Notes: generated by a model from the letters alone, not told the origin. Positions 54,153 through 64,000 are shown, numbered from the stretch's first letter. The stretch: DNA of 64,000 bases from an uncultured Desulfosarcina sp. (GCA_963674945.2 CAXXWQ010000003.1:160001-224000); one strand, 5' to 3'. Made by a program: numbers and translations.

Positions 54153-54725
54153 TTACAAAGCCATCAGCCTCCCGGTCTTACGGTAAAAGTGAAGGCCGAT
54201 CAGTCCTGACTTTTTGATCTGGTTGGCCGCTTCGAAGGATTCGATGGATTTGATCTCATCGTCATGGAAGCCGGGAACGGCTACCACCGGAGAGATGTAT
54301 TGTTCGGGAGGATTTTTTAATTCGGCACAGTGAAGATCCGTCGTCGTCAGAATGCCGAGCAGGGTATAGCGGCTGGGAGCTTCGGCCAAAAGGGCCATGA
54401 TCGACGGATCACATCGAAGCTTGTTTAGGAAAAGATCCAAGGGATTGCGTGTCCAGCGGATGGAAAAAATCCAGCGGCTCAGTTTCTCGGAATATCCGGT
54501 AAGTTGCCATTTTTCGATCCGCCGGTTGTTGATAACCGCCACGGCGGAAAACTCACAGGACCGCCCCTTGGAAATGGTAGTGTTGCGATTGTAACTCAGA
54601 TACTTCAGATTTTGGGTCTTTTCCGGCATACCGCCGATTACCAGCACGTCCTTTAACAACACGACATTTGGCGTCACCACCCGGTGAACCGCTTGAATAA
54701 GATCATCAATGTAATTGTTGCCCAT
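54153..54725 (-). CDS. Hypothetical protein
   Basis: 190 aa ORF with a GGAGG SD upstream; no recognised motif. Confidence 0.65.
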   Translation of the reverse strand: MGNNYIDDLIQAVHRVVTPNVVLLKDVLVIGGMPEKTQNLKYLSYNRNTTISKGRSCEFSAVAVINNRRIEKWQLTGYSEKLSRWIFSIRWTRNPLDLFLNKLRCDPSIMALLAEAPSRYTLLGILTTTDLHCAELKNPPEQYISPVVAVPGFHDDEIKSIESFEAANQIKKSGLIGLHFYRKTGRLMAL

Positions 54726-54953: not shown

Positions 54954-55742
54954 CTATATTTCCAGGATTACCCCCACCGGACAATGATCCGACCCGAATA
55001 TGTCATTATCGATCAGCGCCTGCTTCACACACCCATTTTGGACGATATCATCGGAAACGAAAAAGTAGTCGATACGCCAGCCGGCGTTGTTCTTCCGGGC
55101 GTTGAAACGATAGGACCACCAGGAGTATTTGACCGTATCGGGATAGAGGTGGCGAAAGGTATCCACATATCCCATGTCGACGATTCGGTCGAGCCATTTT
55201 CGTTCGACGGGCAAGAAACCGGAGCGTTTTGAATTGGGTCCGGGATTCTTCAGATCGATCTCGTTGTGAGCCGTATTGAAATCACCGGAGATCACCAGGC
55301 TTTTTCCCTGCTTGCGCAAATTTTCGGCATAATCGAAAAATGCCCGATAAAAATCCAACTTGTACTGGAGACGTTCGTCGCTCATCTGACCATTGGGGAA
55401 GTAGACGACAAACAAGGTGAAGGCGTCGAATTCCATCTCGATGATTCGGCCCTCGTCGTCAAACCGGGAAATGCCGATGCCGTGGCGTACCGCCCTGGGA
55501 GTCAGTCGCGAATAGGCGGCCACCCCGCTGTAGCCCTTTTTCACCGATGCGAAGGAAAAGGCGGACGTGTAATCATCAATGGTCTTCATGGCGTCAGTCA
55601 GCTGATTCTCCTGAAGCTTTGTTTCCTGAAGTCCAACGATATCCGCATCCAACCGGCGGATGGATGCCAGAAAATCTTTTTTCATGACGGCGCGGTAACC
55701 ATTGACATTCCAGGAGATCAGCTTGATGGTCTGTTTGGGCAT
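54954..55742 (-). CDS. xth: Exodeoxyribonuclease III / AP endonuclease
   Basis: SWNVNG, LQETK, YFPNG, GDFNTAH, WWSYR, GWRIDY, SDHCP. Confidence 0.95.
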   Translation of the reverse strand: MPKQTIKLISWNVNGYRAVMKKDFLASIRRLDADIVGLQETKLQENQLTDAMKTIDDYTSAFSFASVKKGYSGVAAYSRLTPRAVRHGIGISRFDDEGRIIEMEFDAFTLFVVYFPNGQMSDERLQYKLDFYRAFFDYAENLRKQGKSLVISGDFNTAHNEIDLKNPGPNSKRSGFLPVERKWLDRIVDMGYVDTFRHLYPDTVKYSWWSYRFNARKNNAGWRIDYFFVSDDIVQNGCVKQALIDNDIFGSDHCPVGVILEI

Positions 55743-55774: not shown

Positions 55775-56446
55775 TCATCGATGACGTTCCACCCCTATTT
55801 TCGGACACATATCGGCCACCGGACAACGGCTGCAAAATGGGGAGATGGGGCGACACAGCACCTGGCCGAAAGCCACGAGCAGTTCATTGTATCGTACCCA
55901 GTGTCGCTCGGGCAGTTTTTTCCGAAGGGCCATTTCCGTCTTGTCCGGCGTCTTCGTCTTCACATAGCCGATGCGGTTGCTGATCCGATGGACATGGGTA
56001 TCCACGCAGATCGCCGGAATCTTGAATCCCTCCACGAGGACCAGGTTGGCGGTTTTCCGCCCCACGCCGGGCAGGGCCGTGAGTTCTTCCATGGTATGGG
56101 GCACCCGACCGTCATATTGATCCAACAATATGTGGCAAATTTCCAGCAGCCGCTTGGCCTTGGTGGGGTAAAATCCCACCGGATAGATCAATTTTTCGAT
56201 TTTCCCGGGCGAAAGTTTCACCATTTCTTCCGGGGTGCAGGCGACGGAGAGCAGCCGTCGGGCCGCCACGCTGGTCACTTCGTCCTTGGTGCGCAGCGAC
56301 AATATGGTGGAAACCAGCACCTCGAAGGGGGTCGCCCCACGGTTGGCGATGAAGGTGATGATGGGCGGGTTCCACTTCCGGTAGTTTGCTTCGATGGCGG
56401 CAACGAAGCGGTCGATATCGAGGGTACACTTTTTGGGCATGGGCAT
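55775..56446 (-). CDS. nth: Endonuclease III (HhH-GPD glycosylase/AP lyase)
   Basis: LPGVGRKTAN, VDTHVHR, CRPISPFCSRCPVADMC Fe-S motif. Confidence 0.93.
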   Translation of the reverse strand: MPMPKKCTLDIDRFVAAIEANYRKWNPPIITFIANRGATPFEVLVSTILSLRTKDEVTSVAARRLLSVACTPEEMVKLSPGKIEKLIYPVGFYPTKAKRLLEICHILLDQYDGRVPHTMEELTALPGVGRKTANLVLVEGFKIPAICVDTHVHRISNRIGYVKTKTPDKTEMALRKKLPERHWVRYNELLVAFGQVLCRPISPFCSRCPVADMCPKIGVERHR

Positions 56447-56536: not shown

Positions 56537-56568
56537 TGTAAAGTTATAAAAAAATATAAAACTTTACA
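56537..56568. promoter_or_regulatory. Candidate LexA operator palindrome
   Basis: TGTAAAGTT-N14-AACTTTACA, abutting the -35 box. Confidence 0.55.
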
Positions 56569-56596
56569 TTGACATTTACATTATAGCTTCTATAAT
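56569..56596 (+). promoter_or_regulatory. Consensus sigma70 promoter of the lexA cassette
   Basis: TTGACA-N16-TATAAT, 40 bp upstream of the lexA ATG. Confidence 0.8.
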
Positions 56597-56635: not shown

Positions 56636-57256
56636 ATGTCCACCCGACTGACACCCGGACAGCGGCGACTCTTCGACTATTTCAAGACCGCCGTCGAACG
56701 GACCGGAAGCATTCCCACCTTACGCCAGGCGGCGAGTGATTTGGGCGTCAGCCACGCGGCCGTGTCTCAGGGGTTGAAGCTCTTGGAGCAAAAGGGAGCG
56801 GTCAAGCGCCAGGGGCGATACAGCCGCACCCTTCACCTGCTCACCCCGGTCGGCGAAACGCTGGCGGCCCAAAGGTGGGTGGAAGTCCCGGTGGTAGGCC
56901 GGGTCACGGCGGGGCTCCCCCTATATGCCCAGCAGGAGTGGGAAGGCAGCCTGGTAATCGATGGCAACCTGTACCACGGTCAGAATTTGTTCGCCCTTCG
57001 GGTGAAGGGAGACTCCATGAAAGGGGCCGGCATCCTGGACGGCGACATGGCCGTGTGCACGCCCCGTCAGTACGCCGAAAACGGAGAAATCGTCGTGGTA
57101 CTGATCAACGAAGAAGAAGCCACGGTGAAACGATTCTTTCTCCACGGCGACCATGTGGAATTGCGACCCGAAAACCCCGATTACCCGGTCATGCGGTACG
57201 GCTTCGACGAGGTGTTGGTGCAGGGGCGGGTCATCGGAATCCAACGGGTACTGTAA
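56636..57256 (+). CDS. lexA: LexA repressor (cassette-associated)
   Basis: N-terminal wHTH, VTAG cleavage site, GDSM catalytic Ser, ATVKR catalytic Lys. Confidence 0.9.
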   Translation: MSTRLTPGQRRLFDYFKTAVERTGSIPTLRQAASDLGVSHAAVSQGLKLLEQKGAVKRQGRYSRTLHLLTPVGETLAAQRWVEVPVVGRVTAGLPLYAQQEWEGSLVIDGNLYHGQNLFALRVKGDSMKGAGILDGDMAVCTPRQYAENGEIVVVLINEEEATVKRFFLHGDHVELRPENPDYPVMRYGFDEVLVQGRVIGIQRVL

Positions 57257-57358
57257 ATTTCCCGACAATGCCTGTGGACTGCGTTATCGGTCGTCGCGGT
57301 ATAACCACATACAGCTTCCTCCCTCTGGCCTTGCCACAGACATTGCCGGGAAATTTAC
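57253..57358. repeat. 106 bp element with 25-bp imperfect terminal inverted repeats
   Basis: gtaaatttcccgacaatgcctgtgg / ccacagacattgccgggaaatttac. Confidence 0.75.
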
Positions 57359-57495
57359 CGGATGAAACGAATGAATGTCTCCCGCAAGCGAACGGGAGAT
57401 TAGATTCAAAACTGTGCAGTCAGCAAATGACATTTAGCTAAAAGCGAATTGCGAATCGCTATTCCCAGGAAACACTACCGCAACCGATAAGAACC

Positions 57496-58335
57496 ATGAC
57501 AACCACGGACAACAACGATCACAACCCCCGAATATTGGTAGGAACCTGCGGATATGCCTACAGCGAATGGGTGGATGCCGGCTTCTATCCGCCGGGGACA
57601 GGTACCGCCCGGATGCTGGCACACTATGCCCGAGTCTTTCCGGTCACCGAAATCAACTACACCTGGTACCAGATGCCCAAGGCGACGGCCATGGATCGCA
57701 TGCGCCGCCGGGCACCGGAAGGATTTCGCTTTGCCACCAAACTCACCCGCACCCTGACCCACGAGGTGGATCCCGGCGGATGGCCCTCCCAGGCCACCCG
57801 CTACCGGGAAGGCATCGCCCCCTTGATGCAATCCGGCCAGCTGTTGGCCGTGCTGATTCAACTCCCCCCCTCTTTCCGACGCAGTCCCGAAAACCGGCGG
57901 TACCTGGCACGCCTCCTGGATGCCCTGGACAGCCTGCCCCTGGCCGTCGAATTTCGACACGCATCCTGGGCCGTAGATAAGGTGTTCGAGGGCCTTCGGC
58001 AGCGCCGTGTCGCCCTGGCCTGTGTAGACGCGCCGGACCTGCCGGACCTGTTCCCGTCCCTGGACGTAGTCACCTGCCCGGATCTGTTCTACATTCGCTT
58101 TCACGGCCGCAATACCAAAGGATGGCGGTCTGGCAGCATGCAGCATCAGTTCGACTACGATTACAATTACGAGGAATTGGCCCAATGGTCCCGATCGCGC
58201 ATTCCCCGCATGGCCGAAGAGGCGAATACCGGCATCATCTTTTTCAACAACCACGTCCGGGGCCAGGCGCCGAAGAATGCACGGATGTTGGTGGAACAGT
58301 TAACCGAAGGACGAAAGACGAGGGATGAGGGATGA
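57496..58335 (+). CDS. DUF72 (YecE-like) domain protein
   Basis: VGTCGYAYSEW, EINYTWY, LIQLPPSF, AVEFRH, YIRFHGRN, YDY, FFNN. Confidence 0.9.
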   Translation: MTTTDNNDHNPRILVGTCGYAYSEWVDAGFYPPGTGTARMLAHYARVFPVTEINYTWYQMPKATAMDRMRRRAPEGFRFATKLTRTLTHEVDPGGWPSQATRYREGIAPLMQSGQLLAVLIQLPPSFRRSPENRRYLARLLDALDSLPLAVEFRHASWAVDKVFEGLRQRRVALACVDAPDLPDLFPSLDVVTCPDLFYIRFHGRNTKGWRSGSMQHQFDYDYNYEELAQWSRSRIPRMAEEANTGIIFFNNHVRGQAPKNARMLVEQLTEGRKTRDEG

Positions 58336-58358
58336 AATGAAAACTGATAAATCAATAT

Positions 58359-58430
58359 TTATCAGAATGTTAAGTGGTTACGTTGTAAGTGTTAAGTGAA
58401 TGAATTCTATCGATTGTAGCGGGTAGGAAC
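58359..58430 (+). repeat. Left arm of a ~70 bp inverted repeat pair (partner 60978-61049)
   Basis: 21-bp perfect core aatgaattctatcgattgtag at 58399-58419, plus ttaagtg heptamer-like units. Confidence 0.85.
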
Positions 58431-58531
58431 CCGACATTTGATCGCCCTACAGTCGAACCCCATCGGCTATAGGATATTGTTTTGAGGCTATGGGGAAAAA
58501 CTCAACTTCTGGGATTCATTCCAAACGGAGT

Positions 58532-58719
58532 GAGCAGGATGATTTGATGACGTTTTGCGCTGTCTGAGCCACTTCGGAGGCCGAGCATCAGCGCCTGGGA
58601 AAGTATATTGTTGATGATAATGTTCCTGAAAACGAAATTGTATCGTAAATGTTTGGACTGCGCTGATGTCCGGCATCCTTGGGGGCGAGTTCGCAAGTCG
58701 TCATCAAATTATTCTGTTC
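58532..58719. repeat. ~190 bp hairpin element
   Basis: gagcaggatgatttgatgacgttttgcg / cgcaagtcgtcatcaaattattctgttc arms; inner catcagcgc/gcgctgatg. Confidence 0.7.
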
Positions 58720-58765
58720 GCTGAAACACAAAAAACATTATCCTGAAATCACAACCACCAGAGAA

Positions 58766-59965
58766 ATGGACCGTGCCATCATTCACATCAACGTCGCCGA
58801 TTTCGCCGTGGCCGTGGAGCGGGTGCTGGACCGCCGCCTCGTGGACCGACCGGTGATCGTCGCCTCACGGGGAGCCGCCCGGGCCGCGGTCTACGACATG
58901 AGCGAGGAGGCCTTTCAAGCCGGCGTGAGAAAGAACATGCTCCTGGACCGGGCCCGGAGACGGTGCCGGGACGCCCGGGTGCTCACCCCCCGTCCGGATC
59001 GCTACGGCCAGGCCATGGTCCGGATGTGCAACGCCGCCCTGCCCTGCTCTCCCCTCGTGGAACCGGGAGACGGCGACGGGCACCTGTTCGTGGATGTAAC
59101 CGGCAGCAACCGTCTGCTGGGACCGCCGGTGGACGTTGCCTGGCGGCTGAGCCAACGGATTCGACAGGACCTGGGCTTTGCACCCATCTGGTCGGTGGCC
59201 ACCAGCAAATTGATCGCCAAGACCGCCACGCGCCTGGTCAAGCCCCTTGGCGAATACATCGTGGAACCCGGTGACGAGGCGGCCTTTCTGGCTCCCCTGC
59301 CCCTTTTTCTGGTGCCCGGTATCGAGCCGGCCGAACTGACACGACTAAAAGAATTCAACGTAACACGGGTGTCCCAGGCCACAATGCTGACGAATAACCA
59401 GATGCGGCTCCTCTTGGGGCCACGGGGGGCTTTTATCCACGATTGCCTTCGCGGAATCGATCCGTCACCCGTTCGCCCGGTCCATCGGCCGCCGCCGCGG
59501 ATCATCCAGCACCGGGAATTTGACACCGACACCAATGACCGCCCTCATGTGCTGGCAACCCTTTACCAATTGGTGGAGCAAGCCGGCCGTCGGTTGCGCC
59601 GGCAAGGCATGGCCGCCGGGCGAATCGCCCTGGTGGCGGAACACTCCGACGGCGTTCGAAGACCCCGCCAAGTCAAGGCGCAGCCGGCTATTGCCGACGA
59701 CACCACCCTTTTCGCCCATGCCCGTCGGGTGCTGGATCTGGCATGGACCCGGCGAACCCGAATCCGTCGCATTACCCTGACCCTCGACCGGCTGACCCGC
59801 CCACCGACCCAGCAACTCCTGTTCACCTCCGAACGCCGCCAGGCCATGCGGCAGGAACGGTTGATGGCGACCATGGATCGAATTCGCAACCGATTTGGCA
59901 ATACGGCCTTGAAAGTGGGCCGAACGATGTCCAATACAGAGGAAAAAGCAATGGTGAAATCATGA
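58766..59965 (+). CDS. Y-family polymerase homolog, probably catalytically inactive (ImuB/DinB-like)
   Basis: IIHINVADFAVAVE in place of the DMD motif, GDGHLFVD in place of SIDE, SKLIAKTA, QQLLF clamp motif, MDRIRNRFG tail. Confidence 0.85.
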   Translation: MDRAIIHINVADFAVAVERVLDRRLVDRPVIVASRGAARAAVYDMSEEAFQAGVRKNMLLDRARRRCRDARVLTPRPDRYGQAMVRMCNAALPCSPLVEPGDGDGHLFVDVTGSNRLLGPPVDVAWRLSQRIRQDLGFAPIWSVATSKLIAKTATRLVKPLGEYIVEPGDEAAFLAPLPLFLVPGIEPAELTRLKEFNVTRVSQATMLTNNQMRLLLGPRGAFIHDCLRGIDPSPVRPVHRPPPRIIQHREFDTDTNDRPHVLATLYQLVEQAGRRLRRQGMAAGRIALVAEHSDGVRRPRQVKAQPAIADDTTLFAHARRVLDLAWTRRTRIRRITLTLDRLTRPPTQQLLFTSERRQAMRQERLMATMDRIRNRFGNTALKVGRTMSNTEEKAMVKS

Positions 59966-60885
59966 ACACGGCAAGTCCCCAACACACGTATCGCCTGGGC
60001 ATCGACCTCGGCGGTACCAAGATCGAGACCATTTTGCTGGATCCCGCCGGCCATACCCTGCTGCGAGATCGCATGGCCACACCCCGCGATTCCCACGGTC
60101 CCATCGAATACGCGAACATCCGAGATGCCGTCGCCACATTGATACGGGACACACTGGAAAACGTATCCAAAAACGACACCTGTACCATCGGCGTGGGCAT
60201 CCCAGGCACCATCAACGACCGGACCGGTCGGGTCCAAAACGCCAACACCACCGGCCTCATCGGTCATCGGTTCCAAGAGGATCTGGAAAAGATCCTCCAT
60301 CGTCCCGTTGCCATGGAAAACGACGCCAACTGCTTTACCCTGGCCGAAGCCACGCAGGGTTCGGCCAAGGGGTATTATCTGGTGTTCGGCATCATCCTCG
60401 GCACCGGCTGTGGCGGCGGCATCAGCATCGGCGGCCGGATTCACACCGGCAGGCATCGCATCGGCGGTGAGTGGGGGCATTTTTCCGTGGATCCTGACGG
60501 TGCCCGTTGCTACTGCGGTAACCGGGGATGCGTGGAGACCAAGATCAGCGGTGGTGGTGTGGAGCGTTCCTTTTACGAGCGGACTGGTCGTCGGGTCTCC
60601 TTCAAGCAGATCCTCGACGGATATCACCACGGCGATTCCCTCTGCACCGCCGTTTTCGAACAATTTTTGGACGACTTCGGCCGCTGCCTGGGGGGACTGA
60701 TCTCCGTTCTGGATCCCGATGCGGTGGTGTTGGGAGGCGGGGTCTCGAACATCGACGAACTTTACACCCTCGGCATCGAACGGGTACGGCGCTACGCCTT
60801 TCACGAACGGGTGGAAACCCCCATCTTGCGACACCAGCTGGGCGACTCGGCCGGCGTCATCGGCGCCGCCTGGATCGGGAAATGA
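59962..60885 (+). CDS. ROK family sugar kinase (Mak/NagK-like, no HTH)
   Basis: GIDLGGTK, ENDANC, LGTGCGGG, GEWGH, CYCGNRGCVE, LGGGVSN; ATGA overlap with the upstream stop. Confidence 0.9.
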   Translation: MNTASPQHTYRLGIDLGGTKIETILLDPAGHTLLRDRMATPRDSHGPIEYANIRDAVATLIRDTLENVSKNDTCTIGVGIPGTINDRTGRVQNANTTGLIGHRFQEDLEKILHRPVAMENDANCFTLAEATQGSAKGYYLVFGIILGTGCGGGISIGGRIHTGRHRIGGEWGHFSVDPDGARCYCGNRGCVETKISGGGVERSFYERTGRRVSFKQILDGYHHGDSLCTAVFEQFLDDFGRCLGGLISVLDPDAVVLGGGVSNIDELYTLGIERVRRYAFHERVETPILRHQLGDSAGVIGAAWIGK

Positions 60886-60898
60886 GGATATGATGCAT

Positions 60899-60940
60899 GA
60901 ACGTCGAACATCGAACGTCCAACTTCGAACATCGAATATG
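60899..60940 (+). repeat. Heptamer tandem repeat (GAACRTC-like x6)
   Basis: gaacgtc gaacatc gaacgtc caacttc gaacatc gaatatg. Confidence 0.8.
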
Positions 60941-60977
60941 GAATATTATCAATCAGATGTTTATAAACGCATCATGA

Positions 60978-61049
60978 GTTCCCGTCCACTACAATCGATA
61001 GAATTCATTAACTTAACACTTAACGCTTAACCACTTAATACTTTGATAA
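60978..61049 (-). repeat. Right arm of a ~70 bp inverted repeat pair (partner 58359-58430)
   Basis: ctacaatcgatagaattcatt at 60989-61009 is the exact reverse complement of 58399-58419. Confidence 0.85.
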
Positions 61050-61079
61050 TATAGTTTTTTACTGTGCAACTAAACTACA

Positions 61080-64000
61080 ATGCGCAAAGCCCCCCCATTC
61101 GTCCCCCTCGCCGTAAGCTCCCACTACTCCCTCATGCGGGGCACGGACTCGCCGGCGGCCATCTGCCGGGCGGCCAAACAGATGGGATACGACCGCCTGG
61201 CCCTGACCGACACGGACAACATCTATGGTTTGTGGACGTTTCTGCATGCCTGTCGGGAGGAGGAACTCACCCCCATCGTCGGGGCGCGGATCACCGACCC
61301 GAAGAGAAAATACGATGCCGTCTGTCTCGTCAAAAATGATAGGGGATATGCCAACTTGTGCCGGTTGATCACCCGGCGGCACAGGGATCCGGCCTTCGAC
61401 CTGTCAAACACCCTACCCGGTCTGGCCGATGGCCTGCTGGTGCTCACCGCCGATGCCGGGCAGTTGAACCGATGGCGCCGTGCCGGCGTTCACACGGCGG
61501 CGGCCCTGCCCAGGCGCCCCCTATCGCCGTTTCACCCCCTGGTACAGACGGCCCGGCAGTTGAAAATCCCCCTGGTGGCCACCCCGGACAGCTTCTTTCT
61601 GGATTCGGACGGCTTCATTGTCCATCGCCTGTTGCGGGCCATCGCCGGCAACACGACCCTCTCCCGACTCGACGACCATGACACGGTCTCCCCGGACAGC
61701 AGACTGGCAACGCCCGACGAATATCGCCAACGATTCGCTCCATTTCCCGAAGCCGTGGCCAACACCTTCGCCATGGCCGACGAATTGGCCTTCACCGGAC
61801 CGGATTTCGGTCTGGTCATGCCGCCGTGGGAAGAAAAGCAGGGGTGCGACGCCGATGCCTGCCTGCGCCAGGCAGCCTATACCGGTGCACGGAAGCGATA
61901 TGGCCATGAACTGGGCGAGGCGGTGGTGCAGCGAATGGAGCATGAATTGTCCATCATCGCCCGCATGGGATTTTCCGCCTATTTTCTGGTGGTGCAACAG
62001 ATCGTTCGCAAGAGCCCGCGCACCTGCGGCCGGGGGTCGGCTGCCGCATCCCTGGTCGCCTATTGCCTGGGCATCACCAACGTCTGCCCCATCAAACACA
62101 ATCTCTATTTCGGCCGATTCCTCAACCCCGGACGAAGCGACCCGCCGGACATCGACGTGGATTTTGCCTGGGACGAGCGGGACGCGGTCATCGCCAGCGT
62201 ATTGAAACGCTTTGCCGGCCGCTGCGCCATGGTGGCCAGCCACATACTGCTCCAGCCGCGCATGGCCCTGCGGGAAACGGCCAAGGTTTTCGGCATGCCC
62301 GATGGCGAAATCGGCAAGATCACCCGGCGCCTGCCCTGGTTCTGGCGCCGGGGGGAACTGGACACGGGACTGCTGGACAGTCTGCGGCGCCGCCCGGAGA
62401 CCCGTCACCTGGATTTCGCCCATCCATGGCCCCGGATCATGGCCCTGGCACAGAAAATTATCGGCAACCCCCGCCACCTGTCCGTCCACCCCGGAGGCGT
62501 GGTGATCACCCCTTCGGCCATCGACGGATACGTTCCCCTGGAAGACGCGCCCAAGGAAGTGCCCATCATCCAATGGGACAAGGACGGAACCGAAGATGCC
62601 GGCCTGGTAAAGATCGATCTGTTGGGCAATCGCAGCATCGGGGTAATCCGGGACGCACTGGCCAACCTGCGGGCCAACGGACTTGCCATGGATGAGATCC
62701 ACTGGGAGCCCGAAGACGACCCGGAGACTCAGAAGGCCGTGGCACAGGGGCGCACCATGGGCTGTTTTTACATCGAGAGCCCTGCCATGCGGCTGCTTCA
62801 CCAGAAAGCCGGCAAGGGGGACTTCGATCACCTGATCATTCACTCTTCGATCATCCGGCCGGCGGCCAACGTCTACATCCAGGAGTACCTGCGCCGCCTC
62901 CACGGCGGTGGATGGGCCCCCATCCACCCGCTGCTGTCCGATGTCCTGGACGAAACCTTCGGCATCATGGTCTACCAGGAGGACGTCTCCCGGGCGGCCG
63001 TGGCCCTGGCCGGTTTCTCCGATGCCGAGGCCGACGGCCTGCGAAAGATCATCGCCAAGAAGGACAGAAGGCGGCAGCTGGCCGACTATCACGACCGGTT
63101 TCTGGCCGGCACGGCAGAGCGGGGCGTCTTGCCGGATCAGGCCCATGCCGTGTGGCAGATGATGACGAGCTTTTCCGGATACTCCTTTTGCAAGCCCCAC
63201 AGCGCATCCTACGCCCGGGTCTCCTTCCAGGCGGCCTATCTGAAAACCCACCATCCGGCCGAATTCATGGCCGGGGTAATCAGCAACCGGGGCGGATTCT
63301 ATTCCACCTTCGCCTATGTTTCCGAGGCGCGGCGAATGGGGCTCTCCATCGATCCGCCGGACGTGAACGCCAGTACGATCCGTTGGACGGGAAAGGGACG
63401 GCGGCTTCGGGTGGGCCTTTCGGCAGTGGGTGGACTTTCCGGCGGCACCATGGAGAAAATCATCGAGGAACGAAAAGCAGGCTTTTTTACCGGCATCAAC
63501 GATTTTTTGGATCGGGTGGGCCCTGACGAAGACGAGGCGCGCGCCCTGATCCTTTGCGGGGCGTTGGATGCCAAGGACAAACGCCGATCACGCACCCGGA
63601 TGCTGTGGACCCTGGCCCGGTGGCAGGCCGATCCGAGGCGGACCAGAAGACAGGAATCTTTGTTCGTCGACCCGCTTTTCGATACGGACGAGATGTCGTC
63701 CCCCTTTTTCCCGCCGGCCGATGCCACCGAACGCCTCCGCCGGGAGTTCTCCGTCCTGGGTTTTCTATGTGATCGACATCCCATCACCCTGTTTGCCGAG
63801 GCCATCCGATCCGGAAAGACCGTGAAGGTCCATCGCCTCTCCAACCTGGTGGGAAGGCGGGTGCGCGTCGCCGCCTGGCTGGTCACCGGAAAGACCGTTC
63901 ACACCCGAAAGGGCGACCCCATGGAATTTCTCACCTTCGAGGACGAGACCGGCATCGTGGAGACCACATTCTTTCCGGAGGCGTACCGGCGCTTTTGCCA
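61080..64000 (+). CDS. dnaE2: Error-prone DNA polymerase III alpha subunit (DnaE2-like); runs off the window end
   Basis: Manual translation: MRKAPPFVPLAVSSHYSLMRG..LALTDTDNIYG, GRGSAAASLV, PPDIDVDF, KIDLLG, YSFCKPHS, FLTFEDETG. Frame checked at several points through to 64000. Confidence 0.9.
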   Translation, partial: MRKAPPFVPLAVSSHYSLMRGTDSPAAICRAAKQMGYDRLALTDTDNIYGLWTFLHACREEELTPIVGARITDPKRKYDAVCLVKNDRGYANLCRLITRRHRDPAFDLSNTLPGLADGLLVLTADAGQLNRWRRAGVHTAAALPRRPLSPFHPLVQTARQLKIPLVATPDSFFLDSDGFIVHRLLRAIAGNTTLSRLDDHDTVSPDSRLATPDEYRQRFAPFPEAVANTFAMADELAFTGPDFGLVMPPWEEKQGCDADACLRQAAYTGARKRYGHELGEAVVQRMEHELSIIARMGFSAYFLVVQQIVRKSPRTCGRGSAAASLVAYCLGITNVCPIKHNLYFGRFLNPGRSDPPDIDVDFAWDERDAVIASVLKRFAGRCAMVASHILLQPRMALRETAKVFGMPDGEIGKITRRLPWFWRRGELDTGLLDSLRRRPETRHLDFAHPWPRIMALAQKIIGNPRHLSVHPGGVVITPSAIDGYVPLEDAPKEVPIIQWDKDGTEDAGLVKIDLLGNRSIGVIRDALANLRANGLAMDEIHWEPEDDPETQKAVAQGRTMGCFYIESPAMRLLHQKAGKGDFDHLIIHSSIIRPAANVYIQEYLRRLHGGGWAPIHPLLSDVLDETFGIMVYQEDVSRAAVALAGFSDAEADGLRKIIAKKDRRRQLADYHDRFLAGTAERGVLPDQAHAVWQMMTSFSGYSFCKPHSASYARVSFQAAYLKTHHPAEFMAGVISNRGGFYSTFAYVSEARRMGLSIDPPDVNASTIRWTGKGRRLRVGLSAVGGLSGGTMEKIIEERKAGFFTGINDFLDRVGPDEDEARALILCGALDAKDKRRSRTRMLWTLARWQADPRRTRRQESLFVDPLFDTDEMSSPFFPPADATERLRREFSVLGFLCDRHPITLFAEAIRSGKTVKVHRLSNLVGRRVRVAAWLVTGKTVHTRKGDPMEFLTFEDETGIVETTFFPEAYRRFC

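Follow-up and report, generated by a model that had tools for sequence, protein, structure and literature searches.

A lexA–DUF72–iPolY–dnaE2 cassette without a detected ImuA in Desulfosarcina, with DUF72 as a likely accessory subunit predicted to dock on the palm of an inactive polymerase

The locus lies at the end of a 64,000-nucleotide stretch of DNA (the window) from an uncultured Desulfosarcina sp. It consists of five genes on the (+) strand, namely lexA, DUF72, an inactive Y-family polymerase (iPolY), a ROK-family kinase, and dnaE2, separated by 239, 430, −4, and 194 bp in this order. The features, in window positions, are the following:

56563..56581, + strand, likely LexA operator, by conservation: direct repeat TTTACAT-N5-TT(T/G)ACAT, period 12, around the −35 hexamer
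56569..56596, + strand, candidate sigma-70-type promoter (12/12 consensus match, 16-bp spacer)
56636..57256, + strand, lexA, cleavable repressor (TIGR00498, 160.7 bits, cut-off 110.95)
57253..57358, no strand, dispersed hairpin repeat in the lexA–DUF72 spacer, not a cassette feature
57496..58335, + strand, DUF72 TIM-barrel protein of a cassette-specific subfamily (PF01904, 1.5e-59, 202 bits, cut-off 25.3)
58529..58722, no strand, dispersed nested inverted repeat in the DUF72–iPolY spacer, not a cassette feature
58766..59965, + strand, iPolY (IMS and IMS_C matches; clamp motif 349–353; RecA-NT-like tail ~362–385; no ImuB-C)
59962..60885, + strand, ROK-family sugar kinase, likely a passenger (PF00480, 6.9e-69; motifs intact)
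60897..60944, no strand, dispersed short tandem repeat in the ROK–dnaE2 spacer, not a cassette feature
61080..64000 and on for 97 bases past the window, + strand, dnaE2-type C-family polymerase (1005 aa, ending after the OB domain)

The initial annotation had described these genes as a co-oriented cassette behind one strong promoter, and all five are genuine. The promoter upstream of lexA is kept across Desulfosarcina loci, and two weak promoter-like sites (9/12 each) precede dnaE2; one transcript for all five genes is plausible. Beyond the window, dnaE2 is followed by an opposite-strand oxidoreductase gene and not by imuA. On the other side, nth is located head to head with lexA in Desulfosarcina loci, mostly together with xth. 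The repeats of the three long spacers were ruled out as cassette elements, each having 12–46 more blastn matches dispersed through the same genome.

LexA is cleavable, as annotated, with A92-G93, S127, and K165 invariant in 71/71 aligned LexAs. The direct repeat is found with at most one mismatch in 49 of the 53 lexA upstream regions from outside the Desulfobulbales (shuffled control: mean 0.03 of 69). In a second, metagenome set, it is present in 46/51 loci within a 400-bp window, being absent in 5/51 as opposed to 19/51 with a 170-bp window. This repeat with its 12-bp period over the lexA −35 element is likely the LexA operator. A sister clade with an identical LexA recognition helix carries a palindrome in its place, creating a matched LexA pair for the question of how one recognition helix reads direct versus inverted repeats. 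A genome-wide SOS regulon acting via the direct repeat was rejected: the genome has 14 sites at up to one mismatch, and recA, dinB, and its second lexA all lack one upstream. Direct-repeat operators are also described in the available text on the LexA boxes of Balneolaeota (EMSA-validated, with a similar TTACA half-site word; PMC7739468) and of alphaproteobacteria (GTTC-N7-GTTC; PMC8565304). The present one differs by its period of 12, its presence at the cassette and not at these three other genes of the genome, and the palindrome of the sister clade. No earlier account of this cassette or its operator was found in the literature listings covered; a 2006 NAR paper on mutagenesis cassettes may hold one.

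The C-family polymerase has intact catalytic Asps (D357, D359, and D513, invariant in 64/64) and an eroded PHP domain with its HxH motif replaced, both as first noted. A separate replicative DnaE1 is also encoded in the genome. Its score against the NCBIfam dnaE2 model, 547 bits, falls short of the cut-off of 939, so that it is called DnaE2 on account of its context and motifs. The Y-family protein had been taken to lack the catalytic acids, which is true of two of the three: the first Asp is replaced by Asn in 80/82 and the Glu by Gly-His in 82/82, but the middle Asp (D104) is retained in 72/82. Its QQLLF clamp motif, Q349-x-x-L352-F353, is kept (Q 81/82, L 81/82, F 82/82). The designation as ImuB-like does not hold. 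The protein is 399 residues long and closes in a helical tail, ~14 residues past a RecA-N-terminal-like motif, and has no ImuB-C domain. A stand-alone DUF6504 (PF20114), which we take to be ImuB-C-like, was not found in the genome (Caulobacter control positive). The tail, with conserved residues D371, I373, R374, F377, G378, and G385, aligns to RecA residues 7–28 with an hhalign E of 0.008 at a probability of only 4.8%, and in a search with the tail profile RecA lay outside the top 12 of 23,033 frames. Against DUF4113 it reaches 20.9 bits (E 3.6e-4), below the cut-off of 24. Weak scores are customary for the RecA-NT motif according to the available text of PMC6511836.

The initial annotation had further proposed that the cassette works without ImuA. 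A RecA-family search of the genome (98.7% complete) returned RecA, RadA, and a second RecA-like gene situated in a prophage, in a phage-type replication cluster. The model NF033429 matched only recA here and stayed under its cut-off in 31/31 genomes of the genus as well as in the Caulobacter control, so that a very divergent ImuA could escape this model. No SulA-family protein was found in the genome. An imuA directly downstream, or one elsewhere that is not very divergent, can be rejected on these grounds, and a self-regulated, ImuA-less mutasome variant is supported.

DUF72 adopts a TIM-barrel fold whose nearest structures are 1vpq (Z 32.5, rmsd 1.9, 252 aligned residues) and 1vpy (Z 31.1). 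Beyond its own family follow MbnB (Z 15.4), sugar epimerases and isomerases (Z 13–14), amid the epimerases endonuclease IV (Z 13.4, rmsd 3.7, 222 aligned), and the UV-damage endonuclease UVDE (Z 12.1, rmsd 4.2, 227 aligned); nucleases and sugar epimerases are equally close. The family is large (6,515 representatives at E 1e-10), and the literature found on it holds no demonstrated activity for any member, despite solved structures since 2004. Likewise, no literature was found on DUF72 with this lexA–iPolY–dnaE2 system, and the main text of PMC3765255 does not mention the family. Cassette DUF72 shares with Tm1631 (PDB 1vpq) the fold and the predicted phosphate-binding residues, retaining the equivalents of Asn44, Lys72, Gln114, Arg145, and Arg191. 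Compared with the Tm1631/YecE family, the cassette subfamily has a conserved surface of its own.

Among 80 cassette loci surveyed, DUF72 is full-length in 63, cut by a contig end in three, a remnant in one, and missing in eight, with five loci too short. It lies ahead of iPolY in 66/75 evaluable loci, overlapping it in three (L010, L011, and L068). With DUF72 as anchor in the metagenome set, iPolY comes next in 69/70 evaluable loci and lexA before in 71/71. Roughly every second genome sampled from this major sulfate-reducer order carries the cassette, iPolY being present in 191/401 and cassette-type DUF72 in 179. Sister cassettes of the same phylum have DUF72 in 0/15 loci.

Complex prediction for DUF72 and iPolY gave a score of 0.84 in three runs, which agree on 92% or more of their contacts, with a pLDDT of 92 or higher for the partners; the best of three controls reached 0.00. 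This mark is attained by 116/157 solved complexes versus 2/215 mismatched pairs, counts that are only approximate because own alignments were used. Of the possible pairs of cassette proteins, the prediction covers this one. A sequence search for solved DUF72 relatives yielded just 1vpq and 1vpy/1ztv; hence, no similar complex was found that the predictor could recall. The model places DUF72 on the palm of iPolY, away from the RecA-type tail, with predicted contacts through residues 21–24, 27, 34, 36–38, 55, 58–59, 64–65, 68–69, 215–216, and 254–255. The contact of lowest predicted error is formed by iPolY Trp126 (codon at 59141) and DUF72 Tyr58; the equivalent tyrosines of Tm1631, Tyr47/Tyr48, were instead modelled wedged into DNA (PMC3828134, available text). 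On the DUF72 side, 7/20 residues of the predicted interface show conservation of 95% or more among 131 cassette DUF72s and occur in no more than one-third of 118 other DUF72s, as against 18/238 other positions (p=0.001). This enrichment is not fully independent of the model because predictors favour conserved exposed patches.

Position 126 of iPolY is W, L, or F in 107/108 DUF72-bearing iPolYs; the DUF72-bearing locus L079 has W126R together with Y164A. Of 132 conserved columns, that of Trp126 has the most lineage-private change where DUF72 is lost. It is changed in 3/6 loss events (four, if the lone changed member of a five-member clade counts) versus 1/75 non-redundant DUF72-bearing sequences. 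L049 and L076, whose genomes still carry a cassette-type DUF72, and the remnant L073 were left out of the loss set. Out of sample, and as predicted beforehand, R or K stands at 126 in 10/20 new DUF72-less iPolYs versus 1/108 DUF72-bearing ones; Glu163 is changed in 3/20 versus 0/108, and the control Trp142 is unchanged in 20/20. These 20 were taken from 25 loci, leaving out a duplicate (L254), a contig edge (L263), and three with DUF72 pieces (L260, L264, and L266). With the tree read by eye, Trp126 is changed in 3/9 new independent losses (p=0.003) and in ~6/15 overall (p=5e-5), W or L being retained in 9/15 loss lineages. The four DUF72-less rows in the predictor's alignment all retain Trp126; thus, the loss pattern was absent from its input. 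Taken over the whole predicted iPolY interface, 5/72 versus 29/720 residues are changed (p=0.19; column permutation p=0.24), and a comparison with nearest relatives gives p=0.033, due wholly to Trp126. A test of 'radical changes' (10/156 versus 6/1560) was rejected since its rule was post hoc and kin were counted as independent. Because scaffold binding is predicted and the contact residue decays repeatedly without its partner, DUF72, which had been listed as one of two uncharacterised components, is likely a new accessory subunit of an error-prone replication machine.

In the best-surviving alternative, DUF72 would be a repair enzyme that shares the regulation of the cassette but acts on its own and does not bind iPolY, the decay of Trp126 stemming from another cause correlated with DUF72 loss. 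The ~15 independent losses that leave the rest of the cassette intact, the DUF72-less sister tier, and the nonsignificant whole-interface test would all fit this, as would the enrichment of DUF72 near polB2, for which a link to damage-inducible polymerase operons had been noted earlier (PMC11791011, available text). One genome (G672) has lexA–DUF72–dnaE2 without iPolY on one contig and lexA–iPolY–dnaE2 without DUF72 on another, a layout that fits binding in trans and also a role apart from iPolY. We nonetheless consider a free-standing enzyme unlikely in view of the complex score against its controls and benchmark, and since the one position that the model picks out also leads all others in convergent loss.

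The ROK gene, correctly recognized as such in the initial annotation, does not hold as the second uncharacterised component, being confined to part of one genus. Its nucleotide-binding and Cys-rich motifs are present (of six motifs, four are kept in 13/13 and two in 12/13) and an N-terminal DNA-binding domain is absent. The best NCBIfam match is a Mak-type fructokinase, below cut-off like every named kinase model. ROK occurs at 7/80 cassette loci, all Desulfosarcina; in 22 other genomes of the genus with iPolY, it is adjacent in 10, elsewhere in one, and not found in 11 (one at a contig end). In an iPolY+DnaE2 tree of 64 loci it is scattered in one genus clade, as a single gain followed by several losses would produce, although support for the inner branches is weak; the losses leave gaps of −2 to 227 bp. 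Orthologues in other genera adjoin the cassette at 0/11 loci and have unrelated neighbours, three of them adjoining an ABC ATPase read as sugar-transport type. Translational coupling to iPolY was ruled out, the start–stop overlap being peculiar to this genome (gap of 72–932 bp in 10/10 relatives listed). In four contig sets compared, one contig, possibly from the source sample, spans iPolY–ROK without differences, and no ROK-skipping joint was seen among the joints listed. ROK is likely an inserted passenger at genus level and not a mutasome component.

A second alternative would make DUF72 and ROK a pair handling a sugar or sugar phosphate, for instance the abasic-site sugar released by the divergent Nth/Xth, with ROK recruited. 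The proximity of DUF72 to sugar epimerases and isomerases, level with endonuclease IV, agrees with it, as do the nth and xth neighbours and the purifying selection on ROK (dN/dS 0.09–0.18 in six pairs). A non-cassette DUF72–(ROK)–phosphohexomutase cluster in another family of the phylum has ROK adjacent in 16/25 loci, but its ROK is only 31% identical to that of the cassette and the cluster is one clade, 1/10 non-cassette DUF72 loci examined. As ROK also outlives DUF72 (G015) and the cassette itself (G006), and no match exists at 73/80 loci (including five with too little downstream sequence for a call), we hold such a pair to be rather improbable. A strong form of the initial annotation's proposal would have DUF72 replace ImuA, binding an ImuB-like protein at its C-terminal tail and being indispensable to mutagenesis by DnaE2. 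The gene position and the failure to find an ImuA agree with this, yet it is very improbable: DUF72 is a TIM barrel and not a RecA fold, is lost in ~15 lineages, is absent from published ImuA-less types as far as the available text of PMC6511836 and PMC12926913 goes (supplement rows ahead of DnaE2), and does not fill ImuA's slot because it is predicted to dock on the palm, away from a tail that is itself RecA-NT-like, if with weak scores.

The preferred reading, to which we assign a probability of about 0.6, is an ImuA-less lexA–DUF72–iPolY–dnaE2 cassette in which DUF72 is an optional subunit bound to the palm, RecA likely sits on the iPolY tail, and ROK is likely a passenger. LexA would repress its own promoter via the direct repeat over the −35 element and, by analogy with established LexA biology, be cleaved upon RecA activation. 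Following the architecture in PMC12926913 (available text), iPolY would bind the beta clamp by its QxxLF motif and RecA by its tail, and recruit DnaE2 as the sole active polymerase. The active-site rim of DUF72 (Tyr58, Gln59, and Arg68) is predicted to dock on iPolY Trp126 and Glu163-Tyr164-Ile165, which the convergent loss supports. Docked in this way, its conserved pocket for phosphate binding would come to lie at the end of the stalled primer, where DUF72 would most likely process damaged or abasic DNA. The fuller proposal, a new mutasome type (DnaE2–iPolY–RecA–DUF72) with an enzymatic, lesion-processing TIM barrel carried on a dead polymerase palm to the stalled fork, plus a LexA switch between direct repeat and palindrome with one recognition helix, we put at slightly less than even odds. 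New herein are the predicted docking on a PolY palm and the decay of Trp126 without DUF72. If true, these would give the DUF72 family its first physical partner and pathway and bring a further class of subunit to the 11 types of mutasome given in the available text of PMC12926913. The named contact pair and the natural loss variants make the role of DUF72 testable with two small soluble proteins.

Compared with known systems, the core belongs to a published type, lexA–inactive PolY–dnaE2 without ImuA and ImuB-C and with expected RecA use (PMC6511836, PMC12926913; available text). As in the putative DnaE2B-iPolY-RecA mutasomes (gbDinB2, scDinB2) described there, the Y-family protein is inactive, bears the clamp motif, and lacks ImuB-C, lexA and dnaE2 are linked, and no imuA was found in the genome; the RecA-NT-like tail is a candidate shared feature. 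As far as the available text goes, it differs from them by the widespread DUF72 gene, the predicted DUF72–iPolY interface, and the ROK insertion in one genus. With ImuA-ImuB-DnaE2 of Caulobacter, Pseudomonas, and Mycobacterium it shares LexA control, a dead Y-family scaffold with clamp motif, and a catalytic DnaE2, but no ImuA was found, the ImuB-C β-barrel is missing, and the extra subunit has a TIM-barrel fold and is predicted to lie on the palm. Pol V and the YqjW-YqjX-RecA mutasomes likewise combine PolY, RecA, and an accessory subunit (PMC12926913, available text). In these, PolY is active and the accessory is a small β-barrel with an arm inserted between the palm and the little finger, whereas here an enzyme fold of ~270 residues is predicted on a dead PolY.

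The cassette consists of five co-oriented genes, all of which were found where the initial annotation had described them, preceded by a candidate operator:

56563–56581: candidate LexA operator, a direct repeat with a period of 12 lying over the −35 element, recognized by conservation upstream of lexA
56636–57256, + strand: lexA, over the TIGR00498 cut-off
57496–58335, + strand: DUF72
58766–59965, + strand: Y-family gene (iPolY, inactive Y-family polymerase homolog)
59962–60885, + strand: ROK kinase
61080 to 97 bases past the window end, + strand: dnaE

The gene after dnaE is located on the opposite strand. The description of LexA as cleavable holds, as the protein exceeds the family cut-off and its cleavage site and Ser-Lys dyad are kept in 71/71 relatives, and the strong promoter that had been claimed is present as a perfect sigma-70 match ahead of the cassette. 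The loss of catalytic acids reported for the Y-family protein is confirmed for two of the three residues; the middle Asp is kept in 72/82. Because the ImuB-C domain is absent, the protein is classed as an inactive PolY rather than ImuB, and the earlier label of imuB-like gene is hence abandoned. Purifying selection acts on each of the five genes (dN/dS 0.09–0.28). A single transcript for the whole cassette is an assumption, since the spacers are long and occupied by dispersed repeats.

ImuA is likely absent from the genome, in line with the ImuA-less cassette that had been described: searches of the genome for RecA-family proteins, ImuA, and SulA returned no ImuA, their matches being recA, radA, and one RecA-like gene that lies within a phage-type cluster. 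This absence is likely rather than certain because the ImuA model picks up distant ImuA poorly, with the Caulobacter control also staying below the cut-off. The core cassette type is already published. PMC6511836 and PMC12926913 describe DnaE2B–iPolY systems without ImuA, in which RecA is expected on the RecA-NT motif of the PolY tail. The iPolY tail of the window shows a RecA-NT-like pattern with weak scores; a tail-profile search did not support the assignment. The DUF72-bearing form is a variant on this type.

New here is the view of DUF72 as an apparent bound subunit of the mutasome, with a specific contact. The predicted complex of DUF72 and iPolY scored 0.84 in three runs, the best control reaching 0.00; the score mark was met by 116/157 solved complexes and 2/215 mismatched pairs, these rates being approximate as custom alignments were supplied. 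Contact agreement between runs was at least 92% and the partner pLDDT at least 92, and the prediction supports binding of iPolY by DUF72. The predicted interface is formed by the iPolY palm (residues 113–126 and 163–173) and by DUF72 loops on that protein's active-site face, with the iPolY tail (about 362–385) lying outside; the pair with the lowest predicted error is Trp126 of iPolY and Tyr58 of DUF72. A sequence search found no solved DUF72–polymerase complex.

Lineages that kept the cassette and lost DUF72 provide a natural test of this interface. Residue 126 of iPolY is W, L, or F in 107/108 DUF72-bearing sequences. In a first set of six independent loss lineages, defined as genomes without detected cassette-type DUF72, three lineages carry Arg at this position and a fourth has Gln in a single member, and Trp126 ranks first among 132 conserved columns. 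A second set comprised 25 further loci fetched after the prediction had been recorded, 20 of them evaluable. Here, 10/20 iPolYs have Arg or Lys at position 126, six of the ten belonging to a clade already counted; Glu163 is altered in 3/20 versus 0/108 sequences with DUF72, and the control residue Trp142 is intact in 20/20. Counted as tree events, which were judged by eye, residue 126 changed in 3/9 new losses and 6/15 overall versus 1/75 in a non-redundant set of sequences with DUF72 (p=0.003 for the new losses and 5e-5 for all). Counter to this, testing the interface as a whole yielded p=0.19 and p=0.033, and nine loss lineages retained W or L at this position. The single DUF72-bearing locus with W126R (L079) also carries Y164A in iPolY, as well as R68K and R255A in its DUF72, so that its interface is either lost or remodelled. 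On the DUF72 side, 7/20 residues at the interface are cassette-subfamily-specific versus 18/238 other positions (p=0.001); with fewer outgroup sequences, the count is 5/20 (p=0.027). The predicted phosphate pocket is common to the whole family.

Among 80 loci found with iPolY as query, DUF72 precedes iPolY in 66/75 evaluable ones; in a set of 80 metagenome loci retrieved with DUF72 instead, iPolY lies after DUF72 in 69/70 evaluable loci and lexA before it in 71/71. Within the order, iPolY occurs in 191/401 genomes and cassette-type DUF72 in 179/401, and 15 loci from more distant parts of the phylum (12 with an inactive-type and three with an active-type PolY) contain no DUF72. From these counts, DUF72 joined the cassette in one clade and was lost many times afterwards. 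It is an optional member of the cassette and does not stand in for ImuA. One genome carries a duplicated cassette with reciprocal loss: lexA–DUF72–dnaE2 without iPolY (L249, G672:C28) and lexA–iPolY–dnaE2 without DUF72 (L076). In two more distant cassettes of the phylum (L117 and L121), a four-helix-bundle gene, read as IVS-type, lies between lexA and iPolY.

The likeliest role of DUF72 would be to process DNA that is damaged or abasic at a stalled primer. Structurally, the protein is a DUF72 barrel (Z 32.5 to 1vpq); beyond this family, sugar epimerases (Z 13–14), endonuclease IV (13.4), and UV-damage endonuclease (12.1) lie close together. On the basis of modelling, PMC3828134 proposes an endonuclease activity specific for lesions; PMC11791011 notes DUF72 near the damage-inducible polB2. 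A sugar-phosphate role shared by DUF72 and ROK has low odds; it is favored by a conserved cluster in another family (that of G593; L223–L248), a non-SOS setting in which a non-cassette DUF72 and a phosphohexomutase flank a different, glucokinase-like ROK in 16/25 loci. The ROK of the cassette had been taken for a mutasome component, which its distribution does not support. It is found at 7/80 loci, every one in the genus of the window, which includes Desulfosarcina alkanivorans, and in 3/41 evaluable metagenome loci, all three with an iPolY at least 67% identical to that of the window. In 22 other genomes of the genus with iPolY, ROK is adjacent in ten, elsewhere in one, and not found in 11. 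It persists in G015, which has lost DUF72, and in G006, where the entire cassette is deleted and ROK alone remains behind nth at the same site (L090, G006:C91). Orthologues in other genera have varying neighbors, with the cassette adjoining 0/11 examined. Hence, ROK is likely a passenger.

The direct repeat of the candidate operator is present in 49/53 loci outside Desulfobulbales (a simple two-letter token shuffle gave a mean of 0.03 of 69) and in 46/51 metagenome loci. In the Desulfobulbales-type clade of 16 loci, the same kind of half-site forms a palindrome in 15 (L018, L052, L055, L056, L062, L064, L067–L069, L072, L073, L075–L077, and L081); the period-12 spacing was not seen in this clade, nor is the palindromic spacing among those listed for the other 53 loci. 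Both LexA groups have the recognition-helix residues S39, H40, A42, and Q45 in common and differ in residue 61 and the linker 67–81. A link between operator geometry and the LexA linker is thus a lead, as it is based on one split only. The nearest published box is the EMSA-validated direct repeat of Balneolaeota (PMC7739468). Within the genome, the repeat was not found ahead of recA, dinB, or the second lexA, a distribution that fits a self-contained cassette. This second lexA (L087, G000:C3:2206227–2208652) directly follows a gene read as integron-integrase-like and precedes a NUDIX-like gene.

Head to head with lexA, 189 bp away, lie nth (endonuclease III, 55775–56446) and xth (exonuclease III, 54954–55742) on the − strand. 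The position of nth is held in Desulfosarcina loci and not in other genera. As a −35-like hexamer for nth and the candidate operator are only about 20 bp apart, co-regulation with lexA is possible. Between ftsY and nth, a 190-aa ORF (54153–54725, − strand) is 65–72% conserved in Desulfosarcina and has no Pfam or NCBIfam match. Elsewhere in the genome, a phage-type replication cluster (L085, G000:C3:938001–956000) encodes a DnaE whose C-terminus carries a fused family-4 uracil-DNA-glycosylase-like domain, together with a RecA-like gene and genes read as Mre11/Rad50-like.
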